Positions 5,246 through 39,007 of a stretch of DNA of 64,000 nt are shown here, one piece after another. The position numbers and the translations under genes are program-made. Position 1 is the stretch's first letter. Each line of letters starts with the position of its first letter. The notes beneath the pieces are model-generated. The model was not told where the DNA came from and did not search any database. It worked only from the letters and a program-made list of their open reading frames with translations. Source of the stretch: Escherichia coli (lineage in GTDB: Bacteria > Pseudomonadota > Gammaproteobacteria > Enterobacterales > Enterobacteriaceae); the NCBI RefSeq assembly GCF_045037415.1, contig NZ_CP173438.1; one strand, given 5' to 3'.

Positions 5246-5516
5246 TATCTTTTTCTCTTTCTGAACGTGAATATTGCGGTGGATGGTTCATCAGCTGTGG
5301 GGCAAGACGTTTTGCCACCTGAAGAATAACCACCACCGCAGCGGGAAGCATGAGCAAAACACCGAGAAAAATCATCAGAATCTGCACTTCTGGCCGAGAA
5401 AATGGCTCAGGTAGCGACAGGGAGTCGCTTACCGACAGCAGCGCCACCGCCAGCAACATCATTCCGATAAATTCCAGTATCAACACGCTTTTAGGCAATT
5501 TACCGATCGCGCGCAT
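5229..5516 (-). CDS. ybjC: Small membrane protein YbjC (DUF1418)
   Basis: ORF track 95 aa with two hydrophobic helices; overlaps nfsA start by 17 bp. Confidence 0.9.
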   Translation of the reverse strand: MRAIGKLPKSVLILEFIGMMLLAVALLSVSDSLSLPEPFSRPEVQILMIFLGVLLMLPAAVVVILQVAKRLAPQLMNHPPQYSRSEREKDNDANH

Positions 5517-5675
5517 ACGCTTCCCTCTGCAAAGTGAGCCTTCAGTCTAAAACTTTTCACTGTATTGTGTTTAACAGTTATAGCTTTTAGCAATTAATGC
5601 AACAGGTTAAACCTACTTTCAGCGAATACATTTTAGCGTGATCATTACAGGCATAAATCTATGAGGAGAGAAATA

Positions 5676-5933
5676 ATGCAAACCGTTATTTTTGGTCGTC
5701 CGGGTTGCCCTTACTGTGTGCGTGCAAAAGATCTGGCTGAGAAATTGAGCAATGAACGCGATGATTTCCAGTATCAGTATGTAGATATTCGTGCGGAAGG
5801 GATCACTAAAGAAGATCTACAACAAAAGGCAGGTAAACCCGTAGAAACCGTGCCGCAGATTTTTGTCGATCAGCAACATATCGGCGGCTATACCGATTTT
5901 GCTGCATGGGTGAAAGAGAATCTGGACGCCTGA
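5676..5933 (+). CDS. grxA: Glutaredoxin 1
   Basis: ORF track 5661..5933; ATG at 5676 gives 85 aa MQTVIFGRPGCPYCVRAK... with CPYC active site. Confidence 0.93.
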   Translation: MQTVIFGRPGCPYCVRAKDLAEKLSNERDDFQYQYVDIRAEGITKEDLQQKAGKPVETVPQIFVDQQHIGGYTDFAAWVKENLDA

Positions 5934-5941
5934 TCGTCTGA

Positions 5942-5976
5942 CAAGCCCTCGCATTGAGGGCTTTATTGATTTTTTC
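5942..5976. terminator. Bidirectional rho-independent terminator between convergent grxA and ybjM
   Basis: Hairpin AAGCCCTCGCATTGAGGGCTT followed by TATTGATTTTTT on plus strand. Confidence 0.6.
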
Positions 5977-6340
5977 TGTGCTGTGGTTTAAACAAACTAC
6001 TGATAAATAAGAAACACAATGCCCCCAGCGCACACCAGAACACCGCACTTAATAACCATGCCAGCTCTTGCCAGAATGAGCGCGTCGGTGAAAAAAACAG
6101 CCGCATAATGAGCATCGAGCAGGGTGCCGCCAGCATTGCGCCAAACAGAGGTTTCAGGACTTCTCTACGATGTGAAAAGAAGCTGGCAACTGCACCAGGA
6201 AGAATGAAAAATAGCAAACCGATTTCAGGATGCCCGGCAGCCCGAAAAGCGCCTTTCATGTGCGTCGCCAGAAAAAGACACACCACAATGAAGAGGACAA
6301 AACAGCAGATTGCCCCCGCCCAACGTTGTTTATGTTTCAC
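5963..6340 (-). CDS. ybjM: Inner membrane protein YbjM
   Basis: ORF track 125 aa MKHKQRWAGAICCFVLFIVV..., four hydrophobic segments; first codon reads GTG. Confidence 0.9.
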   Translation of the reverse strand: MKHKQRWAGAICCFVLFIVVCLFLATHMKGAFRAAGHPEIGLLFFILPGAVASFFSHRREVLKPLFGAMLAAPCSMLIMRLFFSPTRSFWQELAWLLSAVFWCALGALCFLFISSLFKPQHRKNQ

Positions 6341-6608
6341 TCGTTCCTCCTGACACTGCGTCTATCGAACACATTTTTCGCCAGTGTGGCGTTCAGTAAG
6401 ATAAAGCCGCTTCGCATTCCATGCTAATATAGGCCAACGCAATTCATATAGCCGTTGATACCTAATGTGATTACACTAGTAAAATATATTGTTACTTTAC
6501 TATCGTTTAGGTGCGCTGAATGAATCTGCGCCCTGAATTCTGGTAAAAACATTATCGTAAATTACCATTTCTTTCAACAGCTTACTAGTAAACAAGAAGT
6601 TAGCCTCC

Positions 6609-8294
6609 GTGAATATAAACGTCGCCGAATTGTTAAATGGGAATTACATTCTGTTATTATTTGTGGTCCTCGCGCTTGGGCTATGTCTCGGGAAATTACG
6701 ACTTGGTTCGATCCAACTGGGTAATTCCATTGGCGTTTTAGTCGTATCGCTGTTATTAGGCCAACAACATTTCAGCATTAACACCGACGCGCTTAATCTT
6801 GGCTTTATGCTGTTTATTTTCTGCGTCGGGGTCGAAGCCGGACCGAACTTTTTTTCCATTTTTTTTCGCGATGGGAAAAATTACCTAATGTTAGCACTGG
6901 TGATGGTTGGCAGTGCGCTGGTGATCGCCTTAGGGTTAGGTAAGCTGTTTGGCTGGGATATTGGCCTGACGGCCGGTATGTTAGCTGGCTCTATGACGTC
7001 GACACCGGTTCTGGTCGGTGCTGGCGATACACTGCGTCATTCCGGCATGGAAAGCAGGCAGCTCTCACTGGCACTGGATAATCTGAGCCTCGGGTATGCC
7101 TTAACCTATTTAATCGGTCTGGTGAGTTTGATTGTTGGTGCGCGTTACTTGCCGAAATTGCAGCATCAGGACTTACAGACCAGCGCCCAGCAAATCGCCC
7201 GCGAACGTGGCCTGGACACTGATGCCAACCGTAAGGTTTATTTACCGGTGATCCGCGCCTACCGCGTCGGCCCGGAGCTGGTGGCCTGGACCGACGGCAA
7301 AAATCTGCGTGAACTGGGTATTTATCGACAAACTGGCTGCTACATTGAACGTATTCGACGTAACGGGATTCTGGCAAATCCAGACGGTGATGCGGTGCTA
7401 CAAATGGGCGATGAAATAGCGTTGGTAGGCTATCCCGACGCCCACGCCCGACTCGATCCCAGCTTCCGTAACGGCAAAGAAGTTTTCGATCGTGACCTTC
7501 TCGACATGCGTATCGTCACTGAAGAAGTGGTCGTTAAAAACCATAACGCCGTTGGCAAACGTCTCGCACAACTGAAGTTGACCGATCACGGTTGCTTCCT
7601 TAACCGCGTCATTCGTAGCCAGATTGAGATGCCGATAGATGACAACGTCGTGCTTAACAAAGGTGACGTTTTACAAGTCAGCGGCGATGCCCGTCGCGTA
7701 AAAACCATCGCCGATCGCATCGGCTTTATCTCGATTCATAGCCAGGTCACTGACTTGCTGGCATTCTGCGCCTTCTTTGTTATTGGGCTGATGATCGGGA
7801 TGATCACCTTCCAGTTCAGCACATTCAGTTTCGGCATGGGAAACGCTGCCGGGTTGTTATTCGCCGGAATTATGCTGGGATTTATGCGCGCTAACCACCC
7901 GACCTTCGGTTACATTCCGCAGGGTGCATTAAGCATGGTGAAAGAGTTCGGCTTAATGGTGTTTATGGCAGGCGTTGGTCTGAGCGCCGGTAGCGGTATT
8001 AATAACGGCCTGGGCGCGATTGGCGGTCAGATGTTGATTGCCGGATTGATTGTCAGTCTTGTGCCAGTGGTTATCTGTTTCTTGTTCGGTGCTTATGTAT
8101 TGCGAATGAACCGCGCACTGTTGTTCGGCGCAATGATGGGCGCACGCACCTGCGCGCCGGCAATGGAGATCATCAGTGATACAGCTCGCAGTAACATCCC
8201 GGCGCTGGGCTATGCGGGCACCTATGCAATCGCCAACGTCCTGCTGACGCTGGCAGGGACAATCATCGTCATGGTATGGCCAGGATTAGGATAA
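6609..8294 (+). CDS. ybjL: Putative AAE-family transporter YbjL (two TrkA-C domains)
   Basis: ORF track 561 aa [20 protein letters not shown]...; first codon GTG at 6609; stop TAA 8292-8294 confirmed. Confidence 0.93.
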
Positions 8295-8335
8295 AACTGA
8301 AGTTGCCCTGAAAATGAAATTTTTTTTGCACAACC

Positions 8336-8367
8336 GCAGAACTTTTCCGCAGGGCATCAGTCTTAAT
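8336..8367 (+). promoter_or_regulatory. Sigma-E type promoter of rybB (-35 GAACTT, -10 TCTTAA)
   Basis: GAACTT at about 8339-8344 and TCTTAA at about 8361-8366 with 16 bp spacing, immediately upstream of the RybB 5-prime end. Confidence 0.55.
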
Positions 8368-8371
8368 TAGT

Positions 8372-8450
8372 GCCACTGCTTTTCTTTGATGTCCCCATTT
8401 TGTGGAGCCCATCAACCCCGCCATTTCGGTTCAAGGTTGATGGGTTTTTT
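8372..8450 (+). ncRNA. rybB: RybB small regulatory RNA (Hfq-dependent, sigma-E regulon)
   Basis: GCCACTGCTTTTCTTTGATGTCCCCATTTTGTGGAGCCCATCAACCCCGCCATTTCGGTTCAAGGTTGATGGGTTTTTT matches RybB as I recall it; ends in a GC-rich hairpin plus U-tract; lies in the ybjL-rcdA spacer. Confidence 0.85.
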
Positions 8451-8469
8451 GTTGCCTGAAATTTATCTA

Positions 8470-9006
8470 CTACCCAGCAATCCTCTCAACCATCCTCAAA
8501 ATCTCCTCGCGTGATAGCGGCTTACGGTCGGTGACAAAATGCAGCGTCATTCCCTCAATAAACGCATCAAGCGCGCGGGCGGTTCCGGGTTCAAACCATT
8601 GTTCGAGCGTTTGTTGACTGCGCTGCATCCAGTTTTGCATTACCGTTTTTAAGAGCGGTTTTCGGCTAGCCAGCGCGTAGAGCTGGTACATCAGCTCCAT
8701 ATTATCCGGCGTTGCGACCTGTGAGCTGTAGATCATATCGGTGATAGCCTGGCATGCGCCTGGAGCATCACTAACATCGCTAAAAAATGCCTGATATTGC
8801 CGGGACATGATCTCAGTAAAACGGCTGAACGCCTCCAGCAACAACTCATCAATTCCTGAAAAATAGTAGGTCATCGATCCCAACGGCACCCCGGCAAGGG
8901 TAGCAATTTTGCGGTGTGTAACAGCATGTATTCCGTAAAGTTTCACCGCCTCCAGCGTGGCCTGGATAATTTTTTCTCGTCGTTGCGGATCGTTAGCGCG
9001 ACGCAT
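8470..9006 (-). CDS. rcdA: TetR-family transcriptional regulator RcdA (YbjK)
   Basis: ORF track 8470..9036(-); ATG at 9004-9006 gives 178 aa [21 protein letters not shown]... with TetR HTH. Confidence 0.92.
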
Positions 9007-9089
9007 GTCATTTCCTCTCTCTGCAATTGTGTACAAATGTACACAGTCTTGCTAATGTTGTCTTCCCTCTTCTTATTTTGACGTGGTCT

Positions 9090-10298
9090 ATGACCGTAAA
9101 TTCTTCACGTAATGCATTGAAACGCCGAACCTGGGCGCTGTTTATGTTCTTCTTTTTGCCAGGCCTGTTAATGGCGTCCTGGGCAACCCGTACGCCTGCT
9201 ATCCGCGATATTCTCTCTGTCTCGATCGCTGAAATGGGCGGTGTTCTCTTTGGTCTGTCGATCGGTTCGATGAGCGGTATTCTCTGCTCGGCGTGGTTAG
9301 TGAAACGCTTTGGGACGCGTAATGTCATCCTTGTCACGATGTCCTGCGCATTGATCGGGATGATGGTATTAAGTCTGGCACTCTGGCTGACATCGCCCTT
9401 GCTCTTTGCCGTTGGTCTCGGCGTCTTTGGGGCTAGTTTTGGTTCTGCGGAAGTGGCGATAAACGTTGAAGGTGCCGCCGTTGAGAGAGAAATGAATAAG
9501 ACGGTTTTACCGATGATGCACGGTTTTTATAGCCTGGGCACGCTGGCAGGCGCTGGTGTCGGGATGGCACTGACGGCCTTTGGCGTTCCGGCAACGATGC
9601 ACATTTTATTGGCGGCGCTGGTAGGCATCGCGCCTATTTATATCGCCATTCAGGCAATCCCTGATGGTACGGGCAAAAATGCTGCCGATGGCACCCAGCA
9701 TGGCGAAAAAGGCGTTCCTTTTTATCGCGATATCCAGTTGCTGTTGATTGGTGTTGTAGTGCTGGCGATGGCCTTTGCCGAAGGTTCTGCCAACGACTGG
9801 TTACCCTTATTAATGGTTGATGGTCACGGTTTTAGCCCTACTTCCGGCTCGCTGATTTATGCCGGTTTTACTCTGGGGATGACCGTTGGACGCTTTACCG
9901 GCGGTTGGTTCATTGACCGTTACAGTCGCGTTGCCGTGGTTCGGGCCAGTGCACTAATGGGGGCGTTGGGTATTGGGCTGATTATTTTTGTCGATAGCGC
10001 CTGGGTCGCTGGGGTGTCTGTTGTACTTTGGGGACTGGGTGCCTCGCTGGGCTTCCCGCTGACCATTTCTGCCGCCAGCGATACCGGCCCCGATGCACCA
10101 ACCCGCGTCAGCGTGGTAGCTACGACCGGTTATCTGGCTTTCCTCGTCGGGCCGCCGCTGCTGGGCTATCTCGGCGAACATTATGGATTACGTAGTGCAA
10201 TGATGGTTGTACTGGCGCTGGTTATTCTCGCGGCTATTGTCGCGAAAGCCGTCGCCAAACCCGATACCAAAACGCAGACGGCGATGGAGAATAGTTGA
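9090..10298 (+). CDS. ybjJ: MFS transporter YbjJ
   Basis: ORF track 9027..10298; ATG at 9090 gives 402 aa [22 protein letters not shown]...; 12-TM MFS topology. Confidence 0.9.
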
Positions 10299-11113
10299 TG
10301 AGCATTAAATTAATTGCGGTAGACATGGATGGTACTTTCTTAAGCGATCAAAAAACCTATAACCGTGAGCGGTTTATGGCTCAGTATCAGCAAATGAAAG
10401 CACAAGGCATTCGCTTTGTGGTCGCCAGCGGGAATCAATATTATCAGTTGATCTCTTTCTTTCCTGAAATTGCTAATGAAATTGCCTTTGTGGCTGAAAA
10501 CGGCGGCTGGGTAGTGAGCGAAGGCAAAGATGTTTTTAATGGCGAGCTGTCGAAGGATGCGTTTACTACTGTCGTGGAACATTTGCTGACGCGCCCGGAA
10601 GTGGAAATTATTGCCTGCGGAAAAAATAGCGCCTATACCCTCAAAAAATATGACGATGCCATGAAAACGGTGGCGGAAATGTATTATCACCGTCTGGAAT
10701 ACGTCGATAACTTTGACAACTTAGAAGATATCTTCTTTAAATTTGGCCTTAATCTCTCTGACGAACTGATCCCACAAGTGCAAAAAGCATTACATGAGGC
10801 CATCGGCGATATCATGGTACCGGTCCATACCGGCAACGGCAGCATCGATCTGATTATCCCCGGTGTACATAAAGCCAATGGCCTTCGCCAACTGCAGAAA
10901 TTATGGGGAATAGACGACAGCGAAGTGGTGGTCTTTGGCGATGGCGGTAACGATATTGAGATGCTGCGTCAGGCAGGGTTTAGCTTTGCAATGGAAAATG
11001 CCGGCAGCGCGGTCGTCGCAGCGGCAAAATACCGGGCAGGCTCCAATAACCGTGAAGGCGTACTGGATGTGATCGATAAAGTGCTTAAACACGAAGCGCC
11101 ATTTAAGCAATAA
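10298..11113 (+). CDS. ybjI: HAD-superfamily Cof-type sugar phosphatase YbjI
   Basis: ORF track 10295..11113; ATG at 10298 overlaps ybjJ stop; DMDGTF motif; paralogous to ybiV in this window. Confidence 0.92.
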   Translation: MSIKLIAVDMDGTFLSDQKTYNRERFMAQYQQMKAQGIRFVVASGNQYYQLISFFPEIANEIAFVAENGGWVVSEGKDVFNGELSKDAFTTVVEHLLTRPEVEIIACGKNSAYTLKKYDDAMKTVAEMYYHRLEYVDNFDNLEDIFFKFGLNLSDELIPQVQKALHEAIGDIMVPVHTGNGSIDLIIPGVHKANGLRQLQKLWGIDDSEVVVFGDGGNDIEMLRQAGFSFAMENAGSAVVAAAKYRAGSNNREGVLDVIDKVLKHEAPFKQ

Positions 11114-11198
11114 AAAAGGCAGCACGCCCGGCAACACAATACCTGAATGAAGGCTGCATAATTCGCGGAAATTAACCCGCTGCATTATTTCAGGCGAA

Positions 11199-11483
11199 AT
11201 GATTATGAAAAATTGTCTACTGTTGGGCGCGCTTTTAATGGGCTTTACTGGTGTGGCGATGGCGCAAAGTGTCACCGTCGATGTGCCGAGTGGATACAAA
11301 GTGGTTGTGGTTCCTGATTCAGTCAGCGTTCCACAAGCGGTCAGCGTCGCGACTGTGCCGCAAACCGTCTATGTGGCTCCTGCGCCAGCTCCGGCTTACC
11401 GCCCGCATCCTTATGTTCGCCATCTTGCCAGCGTAGGTGAAGGGATGGTTATCGAACACCAGATTGACGACCATCACCATTAA
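11199..11483 (+). CDS. ybjH: Small secreted protein YbjH
   Basis: ORF track 94 aa MIMKNCLLLGALLMGFTGVAMA... with signal peptide and C-terminal HHH. Confidence 0.88.
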   Translation: MIMKNCLLLGALLMGFTGVAMAQSVTVDVPSGYKVVVVPDSVSVPQAVSVATVPQTVYVAPAPAPAYRPHPYVRHLASVGEGMVIEHQIDDHHH

Positions 11484-11488
11484 TTCGA

Positions 11489-11526
11489 CAATGCCTGATC
11501 GCACAAAGCAATCAGGCATTTTTTTA
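11489..11526. terminator. Bidirectional terminator between ybjH and mdfA
   Basis: Hairpin AATGCCTGATCGCACAAAGCAATCAGGCATT followed by TTTTTT. Confidence 0.6.
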
Positions 11527-12756
11527 CCCTTCGTGCGAATTTCCCATCTGTTTATCTTTTAAAAAGATAACCATCAGCGACAGCCACAAAATGCCGTTGA
11601 CAAGGTTGAAGAGATTAAACAGTCCGTTGCCCCCGTTCAGCCAGGCATGTTTGCTGATTTCAATACCGACGGTAAAGATCAGCATTTGCAGCATCCCCAT
11701 CGCCGCAGAAACCGTACCTTTACTCATATCGCTGGCAAACAGGGTTAATCGCACCAGTCCCGCATTCGCCAGACCAATACCGAAAGCATAAATACTTAAC
11801 CCGGCGGTCATCCATAAATACGCGTGCGATGAGATAACCGTTGCCGCAGCAGCGACCAACAGACCAATCATAATCGGCCAGCCGCCCATAATAATCAGCG
11901 AACGTACGGTGCGGCGCGAGGTCAGACGCGCTAACAGCAAGTTACCCGCAATTAACGCCCCAAAAATAGGCACTTGCAGCAGGCCATATTCATAGCTGCT
12001 CAACTGCTCACCGGTAATAATGATAATCGGCGACTGGGCGATCCACGCCAGCAACGGCAGGCTAACGAATCCCAGCGCCAGCGCCCCCGCCACAAAGCGA
12101 CCGTTCTTCAGCACCAGCTTATAGTCACGACCGAGTTCTTTCAGCGACAGTTTCTCGCCTATACGCGTGGCGGTTTCAGGCATAGCTCGTTGCAGACCGA
12201 AAAAGGAGATCGCTGCCAATGCGGCAAACAAGACAAACATCCCTTCCCAGGGCAGCACATGGATCCACGCCGCGCCCACCAGCGGACCAAGTAGTGGAGC
12301 AATCAGCGCCACGTTCGCCATTAGCGCGGTGATCTTGATACAAACCGCCTCTTCGAAGGATTCCTGAATTGCGGCGTATCCCACAGCGCCAATGAAACAG
12401 AGGCTTATACCCTGCAAGAAGCGCAACAGGGTGAATTGTTCAATGTTTTGTGCCAGTAATATTGCCAGACAGGTGACGATAAACCACACCACTCCCGCCA
12501 GCATCACCGGACGGCGGCCAATACGATCCGACAACGGCCCCAGGAGCCATTGTAAAAACATCCCGCCCGCCAGATACGCAGTCATCGAAGTAGGAACCCA
12601 ATCAATGCCCGCCTGATATTGTTCCACCACGGCCAACATACCGGGTTGAATCATATCGTTGCCGATATAGGTTGAAAATTCGTAAAGCACCAGACAGAGA
12701 GGGAAAAGTAACGCCTGACGTCCAAGCCTGGCACCGGAAGCTAATTTATTTTGCAT
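11524..12756 (-). CDS. mdfA: Multidrug efflux MFS transporter MdfA (Cmr)
   Basis: ORF track 11524..12786(-); ATG at 12754-12756 gives 410 aa [27 protein letters not shown]... Confidence 0.94.
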
Positions 12757-30063: not shown

Positions 30064-31299
30064 ATGGAATTTACCACCGGATTGATGTCGCTCGACACCG
30101 CGCTTAATGAGATGCTTTCTCGCGTTACCCCACTGACCGCCCAGGAAACGCTGCCACTGGTTCAGTGTTTTGGCCGTATTCTGGCGAGCGATGTCGTTTC
30201 GCCACTGGATGTCCCGGGGTTTGATAACTCCGCTATGGACGGCTACGCGGTGCGTTTAGCCGATATTGCCTCCGGGCAACCGCTGCCCGTTGCTGGTAAA
30301 TCCTTTGCCGGTCAGCCGTACCATGGTGAATGGCCTGCGGGTACCTGCATTCGTATTATGACCGGTGCGCCGGTGCCGGAAGGCTGCGAAGCGGTGGTGA
30401 TGCAGGAGCAGACTGAACAAACGGACAATGGCGTGCGTTTTACTGCTGAAGCGCGTAGCGGGCAAAATATTCGCCGTCGCGGTGAAGATATCTCTGCAGG
30501 TGCGGTTGTTTTCCCGGCGGGGACTCGCCTGACTACCGCTGAACTGCCAGTGATTGCTTCGCTAGGGATTGCCGAAGTTCCGGTGATTCGTAAAGTGCGT
30601 GTAGCGCTTTTTTCTACCGGTGATGAACTCCAGTTGCCCGGTCAGCCGCTGGGCGACGGCCAAATCTACGATACCAACCGTCTCGCCGTACACCTGATGT
30701 TAGAACAGTTGGGATGCGAGGTAATCAACTTAGGGATTATCCGCGACGATCCCCATGCCCTGCGCGCCGCATTTATTGAAGCCGACAGCCAGGCGGATGT
30801 GGTGATCAGTTCCGGCGGTGTTTCAGTGGGTGAAGCGGATTACACCAAAACGATTCTTGAAGAGCTGGGGGAGATCGCCTTCTGGAAACTGGCGATTAAA
30901 CCGGGTAAACCGTTCGCGTTCGGTAAACTTTCTAATAGTTGGTTCTGCGGCCTGCCGGGCAACCCGGTTTCAGCGACGCTGACCTTCTATCAACTGGTAC
31001 AGCCTTTGCTGGCAAAACTAAGCGGCAATACCGCCAGCGGCCTGCCCGCGCGCCAGCGTGTACGCACGGCATCGCCTCTGAAGAAATCGCCAGGACGCCT
31101 TGATTTCCAGCGCGGCGTGCTGCAACGCAACGCCGATGGCGAACTGGAAGTGACGACCACCGGACATCAGGGTTCACATATATTTAGCTCCTTTAGCCTC
31201 GGCAACTGCTTTATCGTGCTGGAACGCGATCGCGGCAATGTGGAAGTGGGCGAATGGGTGGAAGTAGAACCGTTTAACGCGTTGTTCGGAGGCCTGTAA
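30064..31299 (+). CDS. moeA: Molybdopterin molybdenumtransferase MoeA
   Basis: ORF track 411 aa [24 protein letters not shown]... Confidence 0.96.
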
Positions 31300-32048
31300 T
31301 GGCGGAACTCAGCGATCAGGAGATGCTGCGCTACAACCGGCAAATCATTCTGCGCGGTTTTGATTTTGACGGTCAGGAAGCATTGAAAGATTCTCGCGTG
31401 CTGGTCGTCGGCCTTGGTGGACTCGGCTGCGCAGCTTCGCAGTATCTGGCAAGCGCCGGTGTCGGCAACCTGACGCTGCTCGACTTCGACACGGTTTCGC
31501 TCTCCAATCTGCAACGCCAGACGCTGCACAGTGATGCCACGGTCGGGCAACCAAAGGTGGAATCCGCCCGTGACGCCCTGACGCGGATCAACCCACATAT
31601 CGCGATTACGCCAGTCAATGCGCTGCTTGATGACGCTGAACTTGCTGCGATGATTGCAAAACACGATCTGGTGCTCGACTGTACGGATAACGTTGCAGTA
31701 CGTAATCAACTGAACGCAGGCTGTTTTGCCGCGAAGGTGCCGCTGGTTTCCGGCGCGGCAATTCGTATGGAAGGGCAAATCACGGTCTTCACTTATCAGG
31801 ACGGCGAACCGTGCTATCGCTGCCTTAGCCGTTTGTTTGGCGAGAACGCGTTAACCTGCGTAGAAGCAGGCGTGATGGCACCGTTAATCGGCGTAATTGG
31901 TTCGTTGCAGGCAATGGAAGCGATCAAACTGCTGGCAGGTTATGGCAAACCAGCCAGCGGGAAAATCGTGATGTACGATGCGATGACCTGTCAGTTTCGC
32001 GAAATGAAACTGATGCGCAATCCGGGGTGTGAGGTGTGCGGGCAGTAA
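31299..32048 (+). CDS. moeB: Molybdopterin-synthase adenylyltransferase MoeB (ThiF family)
   Basis: ORF track 249 aa; GLGGLG nucleotide-binding motif; C-terminal CxxC pairs (CYRC, CEVCG); start overlaps moeA stop. Confidence 0.96.
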   Translation: MAELSDQEMLRYNRQIILRGFDFDGQEALKDSRVLVVGLGGLGCAASQYLASAGVGNLTLLDFDTVSLSNLQRQTLHSDATVGQPKVESARDALTRINPHIAITPVNALLDDAELAAMIAKHDLVLDCTDNVAVRNQLNAGCFAAKVPLVSGAAIRMEGQITVFTYQDGEPCYRCLSRLFGENALTCVEAGVMAPLIGVIGSLQAMEAIKLLAGYGKPASGKIVMYDAMTCQFREMKLMRNPGCEVCGQ

Positions 32049-32123
32049 CTGCCACCTCCAGGCCAGATAAGACGCGGCACTCCGCCACGTCATCAGCAAT
32101 TTATGAGGATGCAGAACGTCCGG

Positions 32124-32786
32124 TTAAATCGACGTTCTGCCAAACGCTCCCTGCCAGTCCTGCTCAAACTTCGCCACAGCGGCATCAACCGCCGGATAGC
32201 TAATCATCTGTTGTGCCACATCCAGTGGCAGAGTAATTGATTCACACCCTGCCAGTAAGCAGTCCAGCGCCTGACGCGGGGTTTTGAAACTCGCGGCTAA
32301 CACTTTCGCCTGCGGCGCATGCATTTTCAATAACTGGTGTAAGTCGGTCACAGTCTGAATACCGCTACCGCCCTGAGCATCAATACGATTAACGTAAGGC
32401 GCAACATATTCCGCACCTGCCAGCGCCGACAGTAGCCCTTGTGCTGCGCCATATACCGCGGTTCCCAGCGTCGGAATCCCTTCCGCTTTTAACATCTTAA
32501 TAGCTGCCAGCCCCTCTGCGGTCACCGGAACTTTCACCACGATATCCGCAATAATAGAACGCAATTTACGTGCGTCATTCACCATCCCTTCAGCAGTGGT
32601 AGCCATTACCTGGGCAAACAGACGCCCCTGACCGCCCATCGCCTCGTGAAGTTGCGGAAGCACAACCTCCAGCGGTTTTTTACCCACTGCGATAATGCTT
32701 GGGTTAGTGGTTACACCCGCCAGCGGAAAAATACGTGACAGCGCCTTCACCGCAACAACGTCTGAAGTATCCAGATACAGTTCCAT
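32124..32786 (-). CDS. fsaA: Fructose-6-phosphate aldolase 1 (FsaA / MipB)
   Basis: ORF track 32124..32927(-); internal ATG gives 220 aa [32 protein letters not shown]... (transaldolase-like fold). Confidence 0.93.
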
Positions 32787-32916
32787 AACCATCCTCAAAA
32801 TGTACTTTTTGTCTGAATGTAGACTATCACGGGAAAACTCTCTGAACAGTTGACGCACATCAATCCAACTTTCATTCGAAAGTATTTTAATGTTTGAACG
32901 AAACAGAGAGGCAACT

Positions 32917-33816
32917 ATGATTTTCAATATTCAACGCTACTCGACCCATGATGGCCCCGGTATCCGCACGGTCGTATTTCTTAAAGGCTGTTCGCTGGGC
33001 TGCCGCTGGTGTCAGAACCCGGAAAGCCGCGCCCGCACGCAGGATCTGCTGTATGACCCACGACTCTGTCTGGAAGGCTGTGAGCTGTGCGCTAAGACCG
33101 CACCGGAAGTGATTGAGCGCGCGTTGAATGGTTTGCTTATTCATCGGGAAAAGTTAACCCCGGAGCATTTTACGGCGCTAACCGACTGCTGCCCGACACA
33201 GGCGTTAACCGTGTGTGGTGAAGTGAAAAGCGTTGAGGAGATCATGGCAACCGTTTTGCGCGATAAACCGTTTTACGATCGCAGCGGCGGCGGCTTAACA
33301 CTTTCTGGCGGAGAACCCTTTATGCAGCCGGAAATGGCGACAGCGCTACTGCAAGCCAGCCACGAAGCCGGTATTCATACTGCGGTAGAAACCTGTCTGC
33401 ATGTGCCGTGGAAATATATCGCCCCTTCTCTGTCCTATATTGATCTGTTTCTTGCCGATTTAAAACACGTTGCCGACGCGCCGTTTAAACAGTGGACCGA
33501 CGGTAACGCCGCCAGGGTGCTGGATAATCTGAAAAAACTCGCCGCAGCGGGCAAAAAAATCATTATCCGCGTGCCACTGATTCAGGGCTTTAATGCCGAC
33601 GAAACCTCTGTGAAAGCCATTACCGATTTTGCCGCCGACGAGCTGCACGTTAGCGAAATTCATTTCCTGCCCTACCACACGCTGGGCATCAACAAATATC
33701 ACTTACTTAATCTGCCCTATGACGCCCCGGAAAAACCGCTTGATGCGCCAGAACTGCTCGACTTTGCCCAGCAGTATGCCTGCCAGAAAGGGTTAACCGC
33801 GACCTTACGAGGATAA
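32917..33816 (+). CDS. ybiY: Glycyl-radical enzyme activating protein YbiY (PflE), radical SAM
   Basis: ORF track 32890..33816; ATG at 32917 has an AGAGAGG Shine-Dalgarno 6 nt upstream (299 aa [35 protein letters not shown]); the alternative ATG at 32890 lacks an SD. Confidence 0.88.
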
Positions 33817-33821
33817 CAACC

Positions 33822-36254
33822 ATGACCACACTGAAACTGGACACGCTCAGCGATCGCATTAAAGCGCACAAAAATGCGCTGGTGCATATTGTGAAACCGC
33901 CGGTCTGTACCGAGCGCGCGCAGCACTATACCGAGATGTATCAACAACATCTCGATAAGCCGATCCCGGTACGTCGCGCGCTGGCACTGGCGCATCACCT
34001 GGCGAATCGCACCATCTGGATCAAACATGATGAATTGATCATTGGCAACCAGGCAAGCGAAGTTCGCGCCGCGCCGATCTTCCCGGAATATACCGTCTCC
34101 TGGATCGAAAAAGAGATTGATGATCTGGCAGATCGTCCCGGTGCTGGTTTTGCGGTGAGTGAAGAGAACAAACGCGTTCTGCATGAAGTGTGCCCGTGGT
34201 GGCGCGGTCAGACCGTACAGGATCGCTGCTACGGCATGTTTACCGATGAGCAAAAAGGTCTGCTGGCGACCGGCATCATTAAAGCGGAGGGCAATATGAC
34301 CTCCGGCGATGCGCACCTGGCGGTCAATTTCCCGCTACTGCTGGAAAAAGGTCTTGATGGTCTGCGTGAGAAAGTGGCGGAACGTCGCTCGCGCATCAAT
34401 CTGACGGTTCTGGAAGATCTGCACGGCGAGCAATTCCTGAAAGCGATTGATATCGTGCTGGTGGCAGTCAGTGAACACATTGAACGTTTCGCTGCCCTGG
34501 CGCGTGAAATGGCCGCGACCGAAACCCGCGAAAGCCGTCGCGATGAACTGCTGACGATAGCAGAAAACTGCGATCTTATCGCCCACCAGCCGCCGCAGAC
34601 TTTCTGGCAGGCGCTGCAACTGTGTTACTTCATCCAGTTGATTTTGCAGATTGAATCTAACGGTCACTCGGTATCGTTTGGTCGTATGGACCAGTATCTC
34701 TATCCATACTATCGCCGTGACGTTGAACTGAACCAGACACTGGATCGCGAACACGCCATCGAGATGCTGCATAGCTGCTGGTTGAAATTGCTGGAAGTGA
34801 ACAAAATCCGCTCCGGCTCACACTCAAAAGCCTCTGCGGGAAGTCCGCTGTATCAGAACGTCACCATTGGCGGGCAAAATCTGGTTGATGGTCAACCGAT
34901 GGACGCGGTAAATCCACTCTCTTATGCGATCCTCGAATCTTGCGGTCGCCTGCGTTCGACTCAGCCTAACCTCAGCGTGCGTTACCATGCGGGTATGAGT
35001 AACGATTTCCTCGACGCCTGTGTTCAGGTGATCCGCTGCGGCTTCGGGATGCCGGCGTTCAACAACGACGAAATCGTCATCCCGGAATTTATTAAACTCG
35101 GTATTGAACCGCAGGACGCTTACGACTACGCAGCAATTGGTTGTATCGAAACCGCCGTCGGTGGCAAATGGGGCTATCGCTGTACCGGCATGAGCTTTAT
35201 CAACTTCGCCCGCGTGATGCTGGCGGCGCTGGAAGGCGGTCGTGATGCCACCAGCGGCAAAGTGTTCCTGCCACAAGAAAAAGCGTTGTCAGCGGGTAAC
35301 TTCAACAACTTCGATGAAGTAATGGACGCATGGGATACGCAAATCCGTTACTACACGCGTAAATCAATCGAAATCGAATATGTCGTCGACACCATGCTGG
35401 AAGAGAACGTACACGATATTCTCTGCTCGGCGCTGGTCGATGACTGTATTGAGCGAGCGAAAAGTATTAAGCAAGGCGGCGCGAAATATGACTGGGTTTC
35501 TGGCCTGCAGGTCGGCATTGCTAACCTCGGCAACAGCCTGGCGGCAGTGAAGAAACTGGTATTTGAACAGGGCGCGATTGGTCAGCAACAGCTGGCTGCC
35601 GCACTGGCGGATGACTTCGACGGTCTGACTCACGAGCAGCTGCGTCAGCGGCTGATTAACGGTGCGCCTAAGTACGGCAACGACGATGATACTGTCGATA
35701 CGCTGCTGGCTCGCGCTTATCAGACCTATATCGACGAACTAAAACAGTACCATAACCCACGCTACGGTCGTGGTCCGGTTGGCGGCAACTATTACGCGGG
35801 TACGTCGTCTATCTCCGCTAACGTACCCTTTGGCGCGCAGACTATGGCAACACCGGACGGGCGTAAAGCGCATACCCCGCTGGCAGAAGGCGCTAGTCCG
35901 GCCTCCGGTACTGACCATCTCGGCCCAACGGCGGTCATTGGCTCAGTAGGTAAACTGCCTACGGCCGCGATTCTCGGCGGCGTGCTGCTCAACCAGAAAC
36001 TGAATCCAGCAACGCTGGAGAACGAATCTGACAAGCAGAAACTGATGATCCTGCTGCGCACCTTCTTTGAAGTGCATAAAGGCTGGCATATTCAGTACAA
36101 CATCGTTTCCCGCGAGACGCTGCTGGAGGCGAAAAAACATCCGGATCAGTATCGCGATCTGGTAGTGCGCGTCGCGGGCTATTCCGCCTTCTTCACCGCG
36201 CTCTCTCCAGACGCTCAGGACGATATCATCGCCCGTACTGAACATATGCTGTAA
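33822..36254 (+). CDS. ybiW: Glycyl radical enzyme YbiW (PflF), pyruvate formate-lyase-like, substrate not inferable from sequence
   Basis: ORF track 810 aa; C-terminal glycyl radical signature VRVAGYSAFF; immediately downstream of its activase ybiY. Confidence 0.94.
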   Translation: MTTLKLDTLSDRIKAHKNALVHIVKPPVCTERAQHYTEMYQQHLDKPIPVRRALALAHHLANRTIWIKHDELIIGNQASEVRAAPIFPEYTVSWIEKEIDDLADRPGAGFAVSEENKRVLHEVCPWWRGQTVQDRCYGMFTDEQKGLLATGIIKAEGNMTSGDAHLAVNFPLLLEKGLDGLREKVAERRSRINLTVLEDLHGEQFLKAIDIVLVAVSEHIERFAALAREMAATETRESRRDELLTIAENCDLIAHQPPQTFWQALQLCYFIQLILQIESNGHSVSFGRMDQYLYPYYRRDVELNQTLDREHAIEMLHSCWLKLLEVNKIRSGSHSKASAGSPLYQNVTIGGQNLVDGQPMDAVNPLSYAILESCGRLRSTQPNLSVRYHAGMSNDFLDACVQVIRCGFGMPAFNNDEIVIPEFIKLGIEPQDAYDYAAIGCIETAVGGKWGYRCTGMSFINFARVMLAALEGGRDATSGKVFLPQEKALSAGNFNNFDEVMDAWDTQIRYYTRKSIEIEYVVDTMLEENVHDILCSALVDDCIERAKSIKQGGAKYDWVSGLQVGIANLGNSLAAVKKLVFEQGAIGQQQLAAALADDFDGLTHEQLRQRLINGAPKYGNDDDTVDTLLARAYQTYIDELKQYHNPRYGRGPVGGNYYAGTSSISANVPFGAQTMATPDGRKAHTPLAEGASPASGTDHLGPTAVIGSVGKLPTAAILGGVLLNQKLNPATLENESDKQKLMILLRTFFEVHKGWHIQYNIVSRETLLEAKKHPDQYRDLVVRVAGYSAFFTALSPDAQDDIIARTEHML

Positions 36255-36399
36255 TCTTCTCAGCCCGGCGGCGGCGTCGCCGGGCTAAATCATTCACATC
36301 ATCAATTTCAGCCTCGCTTTCATTCGAAATATAATTTGTGCTCTGCGTCACATTGTTATTACACTGTTACGGTTTCATTTTCGAGCCAGGAGCACACCT

Positions 36400-37215
36400 A
36401 TGAGCGTAAAAGTTATCGTCACAGACATGGACGGTACTTTTCTTAACGACGCCAAAACGTACAACCAACCACGTTTTATGGCGCAATATCAGGAACTGAA
36501 AAAGCGCGGCATTGAGTTCGTTGTCGCCAGCGGTAATCAGTATTACCAGCTTATTTCGTTCTTTCCTGAGCTAAAGGATGAGATCTCTTTTGTCGCGGAA
36601 AACGGCGCACTGGTTTACGAACATGGCAAGCAGTTGTTCCACGGCGAACTGACCCGACATGAATCGCGGATTGTTATTGGCGAGTTGCTAAAAGATAAGC
36701 AACTCAATTTTGTCGCCTGCGGTCTGCAAAGTGCATATGTCAGCGAAAATGCCCCCGAAGCATTCGTCGCACTGATGGCAAAACACTACCATCGCCTGAA
36801 ACCTGTAAAAGATTATCAGGAGATTGACGACGTACTGTTCAAGTTTTCGCTCAACCTGCCGGATGAACAAATCCCGTTAGTGATCGACAAACTGCACATA
36901 ACGCTGGATGGCATTATGAAACCCGTCACCAGTGGTTTTGGCTTTATCGACTTGATTATTCCCGGTCTACATAAAGCAAACGGTATTTCGCGGTTACTGA
37001 AACGCTGGGATCTGTCACCGCAAAATGTGGTAGCGATTGGCGACAGCGGTAACGATGCGGAGATGCTGAAAATGGCGCGTTATTCCTTTGCGATGAGCAA
37101 TGCTGCGGAAAACATTAAACAAATCGCCCGTTACGCTACCGATGATAATAATCATGAAGGCGCGCTGAATGTGATTCAGGCGGTGCTGGAAAATAAACCG
37201 CCGTTTAATCTTTGA
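36400..37215 (+). CDS. ybiV: HAD-superfamily Cof-type sugar phosphatase YbiV (SupH)
   Basis: ORF track 271 aa [26 protein letters not shown]...; paralogous to ybjI. Confidence 0.94.
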
Positions 37216-37256
37216 TTATCACCAATTCAGTTTATTGAGAAAGTGCATGTCATTAT

Positions 37257-37355
37257 ACCGGATACGGCGTGACCGCCTTATTTGGCATACAAAATCATGA
37301 AAATTCAATATATTGCGATACACTACCAGGCCTGATAAGCGTAGCGCACCAGGCA
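37257..37355. repeat. Composite REP/BIME-type extragenic repeat (two REP-like palindromic units flanking an IHF-like ATTCAATATATTG motif)
   Basis: CCGGATACGGCGTGACCGCCTTAT ... ATTCAATATATTG ... AGGCCTGATAAGCGTAGCGCACCAGGCA; a near-identical module recurs at 62052-62150. Confidence 0.75.
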
Positions 37356-37378
37356 ATCTTGCGTTTGTCATCAGTTTC

Positions 37379-37405
37379 AGTAGCCCTGACCATATCAGGG
37401 CTACT
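37379..37405 (-). terminator. Stem-loop downstream of ybiT (probable terminator)
   Basis: AGTAGCCCTGACCATATCAGGGCTACT inverted repeat 10 bp past the ybiT stop. Confidence 0.45.
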
Positions 37406-37414
37406 GATAATAAC

Positions 37415-39007
37415 TTACTCGATCCCTTTACTACGCAGGTAATCTTCGTAATTACCGCTAAAGTCGATCACGCGTTCCGGGGTGATTTCCAGAATACGGG
37501 TCGCCAGGGAGCTTACAAACTCACGGTCGTGAGAAACAAAGATCAGCGTGCCCTGATACAGTTCCAGCGCCATGTTCAGCGACTCAATGGATTCCATATC
37601 CAGGTGGTTGGTCGGTTCGTCCATGATCAGAATGTTCGGCTTCTGCATCATTAACTTACCAAACAGCATCCGCCCTTTTTCCCCACCGGAAAGCACTTTA
37701 GCTGGCTTTTTGATGTCGTCCTGGCTGAACAGCAAACGACCGAGAATACTGCGCACCGCCTGCTCGTCATCGCCTTCCTGCTTCCACTGACTCATCCATT
37801 CGAACACGGTCAGATCATTTTCAAACTCATATTCGTGGTCCTGAGCGTAGTAACCAATGCGCGCGTTTTCAGACCATTTTACGGTGCCGCTGTCCGGTTG
37901 CAGATCGCCCACCAGCGTTTTCAGCAGCGTTGATTTACCGACGCCGTTGGTACCCAGTACCGCCAGTTTTTCACCCACTTCCAGCAGCAGGTTGAGATTT
38001 TTAAACAGTGGACCGTTATCAAACCCTTTAGTCAGACCTTCCACTTCTAGCGCGTTACGGAACAGTTTCTTATCCTGTTCAAAACGGATGAACGGGTTCT
38101 GACGGCTGGAAGCTTTCACCTCTTCCAGTTTGATTTTATCAATCTGGCGCGCGCGCGAAGTTGCCTGGCGAGATTTCGAGGCGTTGGCGCTAAAGCGGCT
38201 AACGAAAGATTGCAACTCAGCAATCTGCGCTTTCTTCTTCGCGTTATCAGCCAGCAGACGTTCACGCGCCTGAGTCGCCGCCGTCATGTACTCATCGTAG
38301 TTGCCCGGATAAACGCGCAGCTCGCCGTAATCCAGATCCGCCATGTGGGTACAAACCATGTTAAGGAAGTGACGGTCGTGCGAGATGATGATCATGGTGC
38401 TGTCACGCTCGTTCAGCACCTGTTCCAGCCAGCGAATGGTGTCGATATCGAGGTTGTTGGTCGGTTCGTCGAGCAGGAGAATGTCGGGATCAGCAAACAG
38501 CGCCTGAGCCAGCAGCACACGCAGCTTCCAGCCAGGAGCAACTTCACTCATCGGGCCGTAGTGCTGTTCCACTGGAATTCCCACGCCAAGCAACAGTTCA
38601 CCAGCGCGAGCTTCCGCAGAGTAACCGTCCATTTCGCCGTATTTCACTTCCAGATCGGCCACTTTATAGCCGTCTTCTTCACTCATTTCCGGCAAAGCAT
38701 AGATGCGGTCACGCTCCTGCTTCACTTCCCACAACTCTTTATGCCCCATGATCACCGTATCCAGCACAGTGAACTCTTCAAAGGCAAACTGATCCTGACG
38801 CAGCTTACCAATGCGTTCGTTGGGATCGAGGGAAACGTTACCCAACGTCGGCTCTAAGTCGCCGCCGAGGATCTTCATAAAGGTGGATTTACCACTACCG
38901 TTCGCGCCAATCAGGCCGTAACGGTTGCCGCCGCCGAATTTGACGGAAATGTTTTCAAACAACGGCTTACTGCCGAACTGCATGGTGACGTTACTGGAAA
39001 CTAACAC
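37415..39007 (-). CDS. ybiT: ABC-F family ATPase YbiT (two ABC domains, no permease domain)
   Basis: ORF track 530 aa; Walker [10 protein letters not shown] and GTNGVGKST; two signature motifs; characteristic ABC-F linker. Confidence 0.94.

Follow-up and report, generated by a model that had tools for sequence, protein, structure and literature searches.

We analysed a 64,000-nucleotide stretch of Escherichia coli DNA (contig NZ_CP173438.1 of assembly GCF_045037415.1), hereafter referred to as the window, with a focus on the locus fsaA-ybiY-ybiW-ybiV at positions 32124-37215. We consider it very probable that E. coli uses this locus as a module to break down 1,5-anhydroglucitol (1,5-AG) anaerobically, a route published as 'radical-mediated glycolysis', with the glycyl radical enzyme (GRE) YbiW acting on 1,5-anhydroglucitol-6-phosphate (AG6P). 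The locus accounts for the anaerobic growth of E. coli and other gut bacteria on 1,5-AG, a dietary and clinical-marker polyol. The gene pair ybiY-ybiW, the substrate, the structure and the regulator YciT are already published and the locus is not new. We add a concrete candidate sequence for the YciT operator, TTTCATTCGAAA, a conserved FNR-type site, which could be the anaerobic activator site unnamed in a Reg-Seq study, and synteny evidence for a former contiguity of regulator and operon. Furthermore, we set out YbiV and YbiU as members of the regulon, bearing on the question of aerobic 1,5-AG metabolism raised in a review. The locus consists of four genes:

32124-32786, minus strand: fsaA, fructose-6-phosphate aldolase (FSA), 220 amino acids (open reading frame, NF009296, Pfam TAL_FSA, RefSeq annotation)
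32917-33816, plus strand: ybiY, radical-SAM (S-adenosylmethionine) activase of glycyl radical enzymes, 299 amino acids (TIGR02494, Pfam Radical_SAM, Fer4_12, CX3CX2C)
33822-36254, plus strand: ybiW, glycyl radical enzyme, 810 amino acids (TIGR01774, ~99% identity to PDB 8id7/8yjn)
36400-37215, plus strand: ybiV (supH), Cof-type HAD-IIB sugar phosphatase, 271 amino acids (TIGR00099, Pfam Hydrolase_3)

YbiW groups with the radical 1,2-eliminases

YbiW shows the hallmarks of the GRE superfamily, i.e. a pyruvate formate-lyase (PFL)-like barrel, a C-terminal RVxG[FWY] domain and an adjacently encoded radical-SAM activase. It is identical to ~99% over the full length to the protein deposited as 'Probable dehydratase YbiW' (PDB 8id7/8yjn) and encoded at the same chromosomal locus as in E. 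coli K-12, identifying it as the orthologue of the characterised K-12 enzyme. Two catalytic elements are predicted from its sequence:

36168-36188, plus strand: glycyl radical motif RVAGYSA, YbiW residues 783-789 with the radical site Gly786 (Pfam Gly_radical)
35139-35150, plus strand: thiyl-radical loop Gly440-Cys441-Ile442-Glu443, the GCxE motif of GRE 1,2-eliminases

YbiW reaches 1409 bits with the model of PFL2-3 glycyl radical enzymes TIGR01774 (cut-off 678) and matches the Pfam families PFL-like (PF02901, E = 2.7e-209) and Gly_radical (PF01228, E = 1.6e-32). YbiY scores 368 bits with the GRE activase model TIGR02494 (cut-off 174), matches Pfam Radical_SAM and Fer4_12 and contains the CX3CX2C motif (CSLGCRWC) plus a second CX3CX2C. 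An earlier note, made from the letters of this DNA, had named the four genes with their orientations, the RVAGYSA signature in YbiW and YbiY as its radical-SAM activase. Open reading frames and family scores above the cut-offs confirm the four genes, and both the signature and the activase features are found as described.

The earlier note had also proposed to compare the active site of YbiW with those of characterised enzymes. We aligned it with B12-independent glycerol dehydratase (GDH), PflD, PflB and eight relatives. The comparison reveals a loop of the GDH type: YbiW G440-C441-I442-E443 aligns with G432-C433-V434-E435 of GDH, the counterpart in PflB being Cys419-Cys420-Val-Ser, while the radical-bearing Gly786 aligns with G763 of GDH and G735 of PflB. 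YbiW His165, His282, Ser283 and Tyr344 align with H164, H281, S282 and Y339 of GDH. Because of the Gly-Cys-x-Glu loop and the aligned GDH residues, together with the lack of a Cys-Cys pair, YbiW is, as judged by its sequence, a member of the radical 1,2-eliminases and not a pyruvate formate-lyase. Within the pocket, GDH D447 is replaced by Gly456 and GDH Y640 by Ser662, and a GYRCTG loop absent from GDH is inserted. These changes are consistent with YbiW having a larger pocket and a bulkier substrate than the small-diol dehydratases.

Substrate and proposed pathway

The assignment of the substrate goes back to Ma et al. 2024 (JACS 146:26187) as relayed in passages of a review (PMC12441222). 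According to these passages, 1,5-AG and 1,5-anhydromannitol are phosphorylated beforehand by the phosphotransferase system (PTS), and YbiW, an AG6P C-O lyase ('dehydratase'), converts AG6P to 1-deoxyfructose-6-phosphate, whilst PflD forms the same product from 1,5-anhydromannitol-6-phosphate (1,5-AM6P). The product is described as being 'further metabolized', and the route as permitting anaerobic growth of E. coli and many gut bacteria on 1,5-AG. The expectation of the earlier note, an anaerobic radical reaction on a sugar or sugar phosphate tied to the aldolase, agrees with this substrate as the review passages give it. FSA accepts hydroxyacetone as donor (PMC8062046), and the physiological role of FsaA was called unknown before 2024 (PMC6643234).

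In the pathway proposed here, 1,5-AG would be taken up and phosphorylated by the PTS resulting in AG6P, as described in the literature. YbiY, using its [4Fe-4S] cluster and SAM, would place the radical on Gly786 of YbiW, as known for the family. The radical would then move from Gly786 to Cys441, and the thiyl radical would take a hydrogen from the hydroxyl-bearing C2 with Glu443 acting as base; the C1-O5 ring ether would be eliminated and the hydrogen handed back to C1, resulting in open-chain 1-deoxyfructose-6-phosphate. For this step the product is taken from the literature and the radical chemistry is modelled by analogy on the glycyl-radical 1,2-eliminases. Finally, the divergently encoded FsaA would cleave 1-deoxyfructose-6-phosphate, a substrate which FsaA and FsaB reportedly split into glyceraldehyde-3-phosphate and hydroxyacetone. 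The hydroxyacetone is said to be reduced by GldA to 1,2-propanediol.

Several points weigh against the assignment of the locus to anaerobic 1,5-AG catabolism or against parts of it. The YbiW substrate is drawn from the review passages, from reference lists and from the names of PDB entries. A PTS or kinase gene is absent from the locus. Klebsiella and Raoultella (loci L026, L028, L031, L035, L037-L039) show the order moeB-ybiY-ybiW-ybiV with the adjacent fsaA missing, loci which keep the TTTCATTCGAAA copies. The operator and the FNR site presented below are assigned from sequence, and the published ChIP-exo peak of YciT is said to lie ~100 bp from the Reg-Seq site (10.1101/2025.05.13.653802). 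Finally, the names given to YbiW in RefSeq and NCBIfam (June 2026) are still just 'glycyl radical protein' or 'putative pyruvate formate lyase'; the locus looked open because database annotation trails the literature.

A candidate YciT operator and an FNR-type site

YciT is an unlinked DeoR-type regulator. ChIP-exo peaks of YciT were reported at ybiY/fsaA and at ybiV, and RNA-seq upon deletion of yciT revealed log2 changes of +7.7 for ybiY, +7.0 for ybiU, +2.2 for ybiV and +1.8 for fsaA (PMC8464067). The earlier note had named the finding that the four genes are never co-regulated as an outcome speaking against its reading. These data contradict such a finding: binding of YciT was seen upstream of ybiY, fsaA and ybiV, and all three genes lose their repression when yciT is deleted. 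A Reg-Seq preprint reports the ybiYW promoter being active only anaerobically, YciT being pulled down on the ybiY promoter, and the footprint of an unnamed activator just upstream of the YciT site (10.1101/2025.05.13.653802). We find the following elements at the corresponding promoters:

32850-32863, no strand assigned: FNR-type site TTGACGCACATCAA (TTGA-N6-TCAA), 9/10 match to TTGAT-N4-ATCAA
32870-32881, plus strand: operator-like 12-mer TTTCATTCGAAA, copy 1, predicted YciT repressor site in the fsaA-ybiY spacer
32886-32891, plus strand: candidate -10 element TTTAAT, 5/6 match to TATAAT, with ATTTAAT conserved in the promoter profile
36318-36329, plus strand: operator-like 12-mer TTTCATTCGAAA, copy 2, predicted YciT site ~70 bp before the ybiV ATG

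These two copies of exact TTTCATTCGAAA are the only ones in the window. To compare loci we used a set of 80 loci from different Enterobacterales species encoding YbiW with at least 85% identity. In nearly all of them the 12-mer is found with 0-1 mismatch ~36-38 bp before the ybiY ATG, and in most of the ybiV-bearing loci the ybiW-ybiV spacer contains a second exact copy, found in both orientations and with differing distances. E. coli K-12 has three exact copies, the third just before ybiU. No copy with up to one mismatch was found near the pflD/fsaB cluster or near yciT, and thus nothing points to an operator shared by the PflD branch or to YciT regulating its own gene. We infer that TTTCATTCGAAA is the YciT operator, binding by YciT and de-repression upon deletion of yciT being published and the assignment of the sequence being ours. 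YciT would accordingly repress the module via the predicted operators upstream of ybiY/fsaA and of ybiV.

The FNR-type site is positioned 6 bp upstream of TTTCATTCGAAA copy 1 and is the only TTGA-N6-TCAA in the window. Of 76 distinct promoter sequences, 69 keep its half-sites at a constant offset, with a variable interior. The candidate -10 element was not called by a generic promoter scan; judged from this element, transcription would start near 32898. This would centre the FNR-type site at ~-41.5, corresponding to a class II FNR geometry. We propose FNR as the unnamed Reg-Seq activator of the ybiYW promoter, probably activating it anaerobically at 32850-32863. Our literature search found no paper connecting ybiY with FNR.

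The conserved unit and the position of ybiV

Within the comparison set, ybiY adjoins ybiW in 80/80 loci. A divergent fsaA is found beside ybiY in 62/80, including 14/18 loci away from moeAB, and ybiV follows ybiW in 59/80. The dependence on the genomic context was analysed for those 67 of the 80 loci with enough flanking sequence using Fisher's test:

ybiV next to ybiYW: 53/53 beside moeAB, 0/14 elsewhere, p = 1e-14
fsaA next to ybiYW: 42/53 beside moeAB, 10/14 elsewhere, p = 0.5

The presence of fsaA is independent of the position whereas ybiV is found only in the moeAB context, leaving fsaA-ybiY-ybiW as the group kept together across contexts. The link of ybiV to ybiYW is regulatory and positional.

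This distribution bears directly on an alternative, according to which the functional unit comprises only fsaA-ybiY-ybiW (plus YciT), ybiV being a neighbour with an acquired operator and encoding a generic sugar-phosphate phosphatase. To this we give an even chance. Apart from the strict dependence of ybiV on moeAB, yciT usually takes the place of ybiV after ybiW where the module is found elsewhere, and the HAD protein encoded in the vicinity of a YbiW homologue (54% identity) shows only 26% identity to YbiV. De-repression of ybiV is modest, i.e. 2.2 log2 compared to 7.7 for ybiY (PMC8464067), and ybiV is set off from ybiW by 145 bp and by a hairpin:

36264-36288, plus strand: G+C-rich hairpin AGCCCGGCG-N7-CGCCGGGCT, a perfect 9-bp inverted repeat directly 3' of the ybiW stop codon

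A T tract is missing on both strands, and the scan did not call the hairpin as an intrinsic terminator; the element may terminate transcription weakly or stabilise the RNA. Against this alternative, YciT binds at ybiV in vivo (PMC8464067), and the exact 12-mer is retained upstream of ybiV in many genera in spite of drifting position and orientation, which argues for selection for co-regulation.

The relocated modules also connect the anaerobic 1,5-AG module with its regulator. In 11/18 of these loci a DeoR-family regulator gene, orthologous to yciT, follows ybiW. The encoded proteins score 415 bits with the YciT model NF040887, just under the cut-off of 450, and are 58-78% identical to YciT. 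In Serratia, Buttiauxella and Franconibacter (L072-L075, L077) the gene order is pdeR-yciZ-[fsaA/ybiY-ybiW]-yciT-osmB-yciH-pyrF, the counterpart in E. coli K-12 (L093) being pdeR-yciZ-yciT-osmB-yciH-pyrF. The shared order from pdeR to pyrF identifies the regulators of the relocated loci as positional orthologues of YciT. In E. coli, module and yciT are ~480 kb apart; as the gene orders indicate, both were once contiguous and became separated in the Escherichia lineage.

YbiV and YbiU as possible members of an AG6P-handling regulon

YbiV scores 220 bits with the Cof-type HAD-IIB model TIGR00099 (cut-off 137), matches Hydrolase_3 (PF08282, E = 3.9e-53) and carries the N-terminal DxDGT nucleophile motif within residues 7-14 (VTDMDGTF), placing it within the Cof-type HAD-IIB family. 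It matches PDB 1rlm (E = 6.5e-176) and 2hf2 (E = 2.3e-175), both being YbiV/SupH. A single 1047-residue protein record (P0007), 99% identical to YbiW, combines PFL/Gly_radical domains with a HAD (Hydrolase_3) domain. It looks like a YbiW-YbiV fusion, represented by this one sequence, and most probably results from a frameshift or an error of assembly.

In K-12, ybiV and ybiT are separated by ybiU and its operator copy (L083, 7797-9062); the strain analysed here has neither of the two, its ybiV-ybiT spacer comprising 37216-37414. Of the 5426 complete E. coli genomes, 4249 carry ybiU and ~22% lack it. YbiU is a DUF1479/Gig2-like, cupin-like protein with an H-x-D motif and known structures (2dbi/2csg). 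In Rouxiella aceris (L068, 3101-6970) and Mangrovibacter (L079, 12043-14200), homologues of yciT and of ybiU (66-71% identity with the K-12 protein YbiU) sit beside fsaA-ybiYW, and ybiV is missing. This suggests a closer association of the module with ybiU than with ybiV.

AG6P is toxic to human neutrophils in deficiency of G6PC3 or in type Ib glycogen storage disease (GSD-Ib), and an aerobic enzyme metabolising 1,5-AG is not known according to the passages of the review cited here (PMC12441222). Tentatively, and as a reading that we hold to be rather unlikely as a whole, the locus might form the core of a YciT/FNR regulon that handles AG6P even when oxygen disables YbiW. YbiV would serve as a relief-valve phosphatase for AG6P (or 1-deoxyfructose-6-phosphate), as a bacterial counterpart of human G6PC3, and YbiU, where present and second only to ybiY in the strength of repression by YciT, as an oxygen-dependent enzyme, catalysing e.g. 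the C1 hydroxylation of AG6P to yield glucose-6-phosphate. The strain analysed here, in common with ~22% of the complete E. coli genomes, would then have lost the aerobic arm.

Comparison with characterised glycyl radical enzymes

The closest counterparts of YbiW and YbiY are the K-12 proteins (b0823/b0824), representing the same genes in another strain: YbiW is ~99% identical over 810 residues with a handful of natural substitutions, and the neighbours fsaA, ybiV and moeB are shared. Next comes the paralogous PflD/PflC system of E. coli, in which a GRE and its activase are likewise linked to an FSA-type aldolase, the GCxE loop is present and the same product, 1-deoxyfructose-6-phosphate, is reported in the review passages on Ma et al. 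2024 (PMC12441222). PflD (structure 8yjo) shares 39% identity with YbiW. Its cluster, gldA-fsaB-ptsA next to frwCB-pflD-pflC-frwD, brings along PTS components of its own as well as gldA, none of them found at the ybiW locus. Moreover, PflD retains the His-Asp of the GDH loop, whereas YbiW has Thr-Gly and an insertion at this site.

With GDH of Clostridium butyricum (1r8w), propanediol dehydratase, HypD and CutC, YbiW shares the fold, the glycyl motif, the Cys-x-Glu loop and the His/Ser/Tyr residues, and presumably also the mechanism of the GRE 1,2-eliminases, i.e. elimination next to a ketyl-type radical. Among PDB entries other than orthologues, YbiW is best matched by the glycerol dehydratase 1r8w (37% identity, E = 6e-164) and the diol dehydratase 5i2a, and the catalytic Cys, Glu, His and Ser of glycerol dehydratase are conserved. 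These are thus the closest long-characterised relatives by sequence, and YbiW might itself be a B12-independent glycerol or 1,2-propanediol dehydratase. We regard this as highly improbable: the substrate-contacting residues D447 and Y640 are replaced and the GYRCTG loop is inserted as described above, genes for 1,3-propanediol formation or propanediol utilisation are absent nearby, the conserved partner is a hexose-6-phosphate aldolase, and the literature, as relayed in the review passages (PMC12441222), assigns AG6P as the substrate. Compared to GDH, the substrate of YbiW is a cyclic hexitol phosphate, and the leaving group is the ring oxygen, resulting in a net isomerisation with no loss of water.

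With PflB/PflA, YbiW and YbiY have the superfamily, the fold, the glycyl motif and the type of activase in common, and many database records, among them PDB 6xs4, carry the name 'formate C-acetyltransferase'. YbiW being a third pyruvate formate-lyase, with YbiY as its activase, is nevertheless effectively refuted by the loop, the scores and the published substrate: PflB uses a Cys-Cys dyad for the C-C cleavage of pyruvate where YbiW has Gly-Cys-x-Glu, YbiW, with only 161 bits for the PFL equivalog TIGR01255 (cut-off 994), scores 151 bits against PflB (24% identity) compared to 550 bits against glycerol dehydratase in the PDB, and acts on AG6P according to the review passages (PMC12441222).

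Loci outside the common arrangement

In Yersinia alsatica and Y. frederiksenii (L080, L082, ~5300-12150), ybiY-ybiW is located between sgrR (1051 bits with NF010149) and a gene encoding a sugar efflux transporter of the SetA/SetB type, with neither fsaA nor yciT adjacent. SgrS was not detected in this locus at the Rfam gathering score. The sgrR/Set locus is a sugar-phosphate-stress locus in E. coli, which fits the theme of AG6P handling but proves nothing.

More distant YbiW relatives (40-54% identity) are encoded next to sugar kinases, sugar ABC transporters and SorC/DeoR sugar-binding regulators. No FSA gene was found near the representatives of this group, the contigs of which are mostly short. 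As they probably act on other sugar phosphates, these relatives are not usable for testing the link of fsaA or ybiV. One of them, a 54%-identical YbiW homologue (L084, GCA_002841395.1, 5258-15652), comes from a distant genome, has no adjacent activase and is flanked by genes for a ROK-family sugar kinase and a DeoR regulator, the latter located immediately 3' and being 39% identical. A second GRE with its activase is encoded 2 kb downstream, and a lyxose-isomerase-like gene, a gene for a Cof-type HAD protein and a lactonase gene are oriented divergently. The Cof-type HAD protein was considered as a recurrent partner corresponding to YbiV and ruled out due to the 26% identity mentioned above.

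Gene models and conservation of the locus

The locus is flanked by moeA-moeB upstream and by ybiT downstream. The gene fsaA is transcribed divergently from ybiY, with a spacer of 130 bp; ybiY and ybiW are separated by 5 bp and ybiW and ybiV by 145 bp. FsaA belongs by its scores to the fructose-6-phosphate aldolase (FSA/TalC/MipB) family (NF009296, 452 bits, cut-off 306; TIGR00875, 282 bits, cut-off 246; Pfam TAL_FSA, 4.4e-49). Its start is the ATG at 32786, the mechanical open reading frame extending to 32927 from a TTG. For ybiY the start at 32917 corresponds to the NCBI start and is preceded by an AGAGAGG Shine-Dalgarno sequence, which is missing from the alternative 308-residue open reading frame starting with the ATG at 32890. 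An Rfam scan of 31000-38500 yielded no matches, and the generic promoter/terminator scan, which missed the ybiY promoter region, returned sites no more numerous than in shuffled sequence. Several complete E. coli chromosomes carry the 5,092-bp stretch 32124-37215 with 100% identity, and out of 5426 complete E. coli genomes 5425 have it, annotated as fsa/ybiY/ybiW/ybiV.

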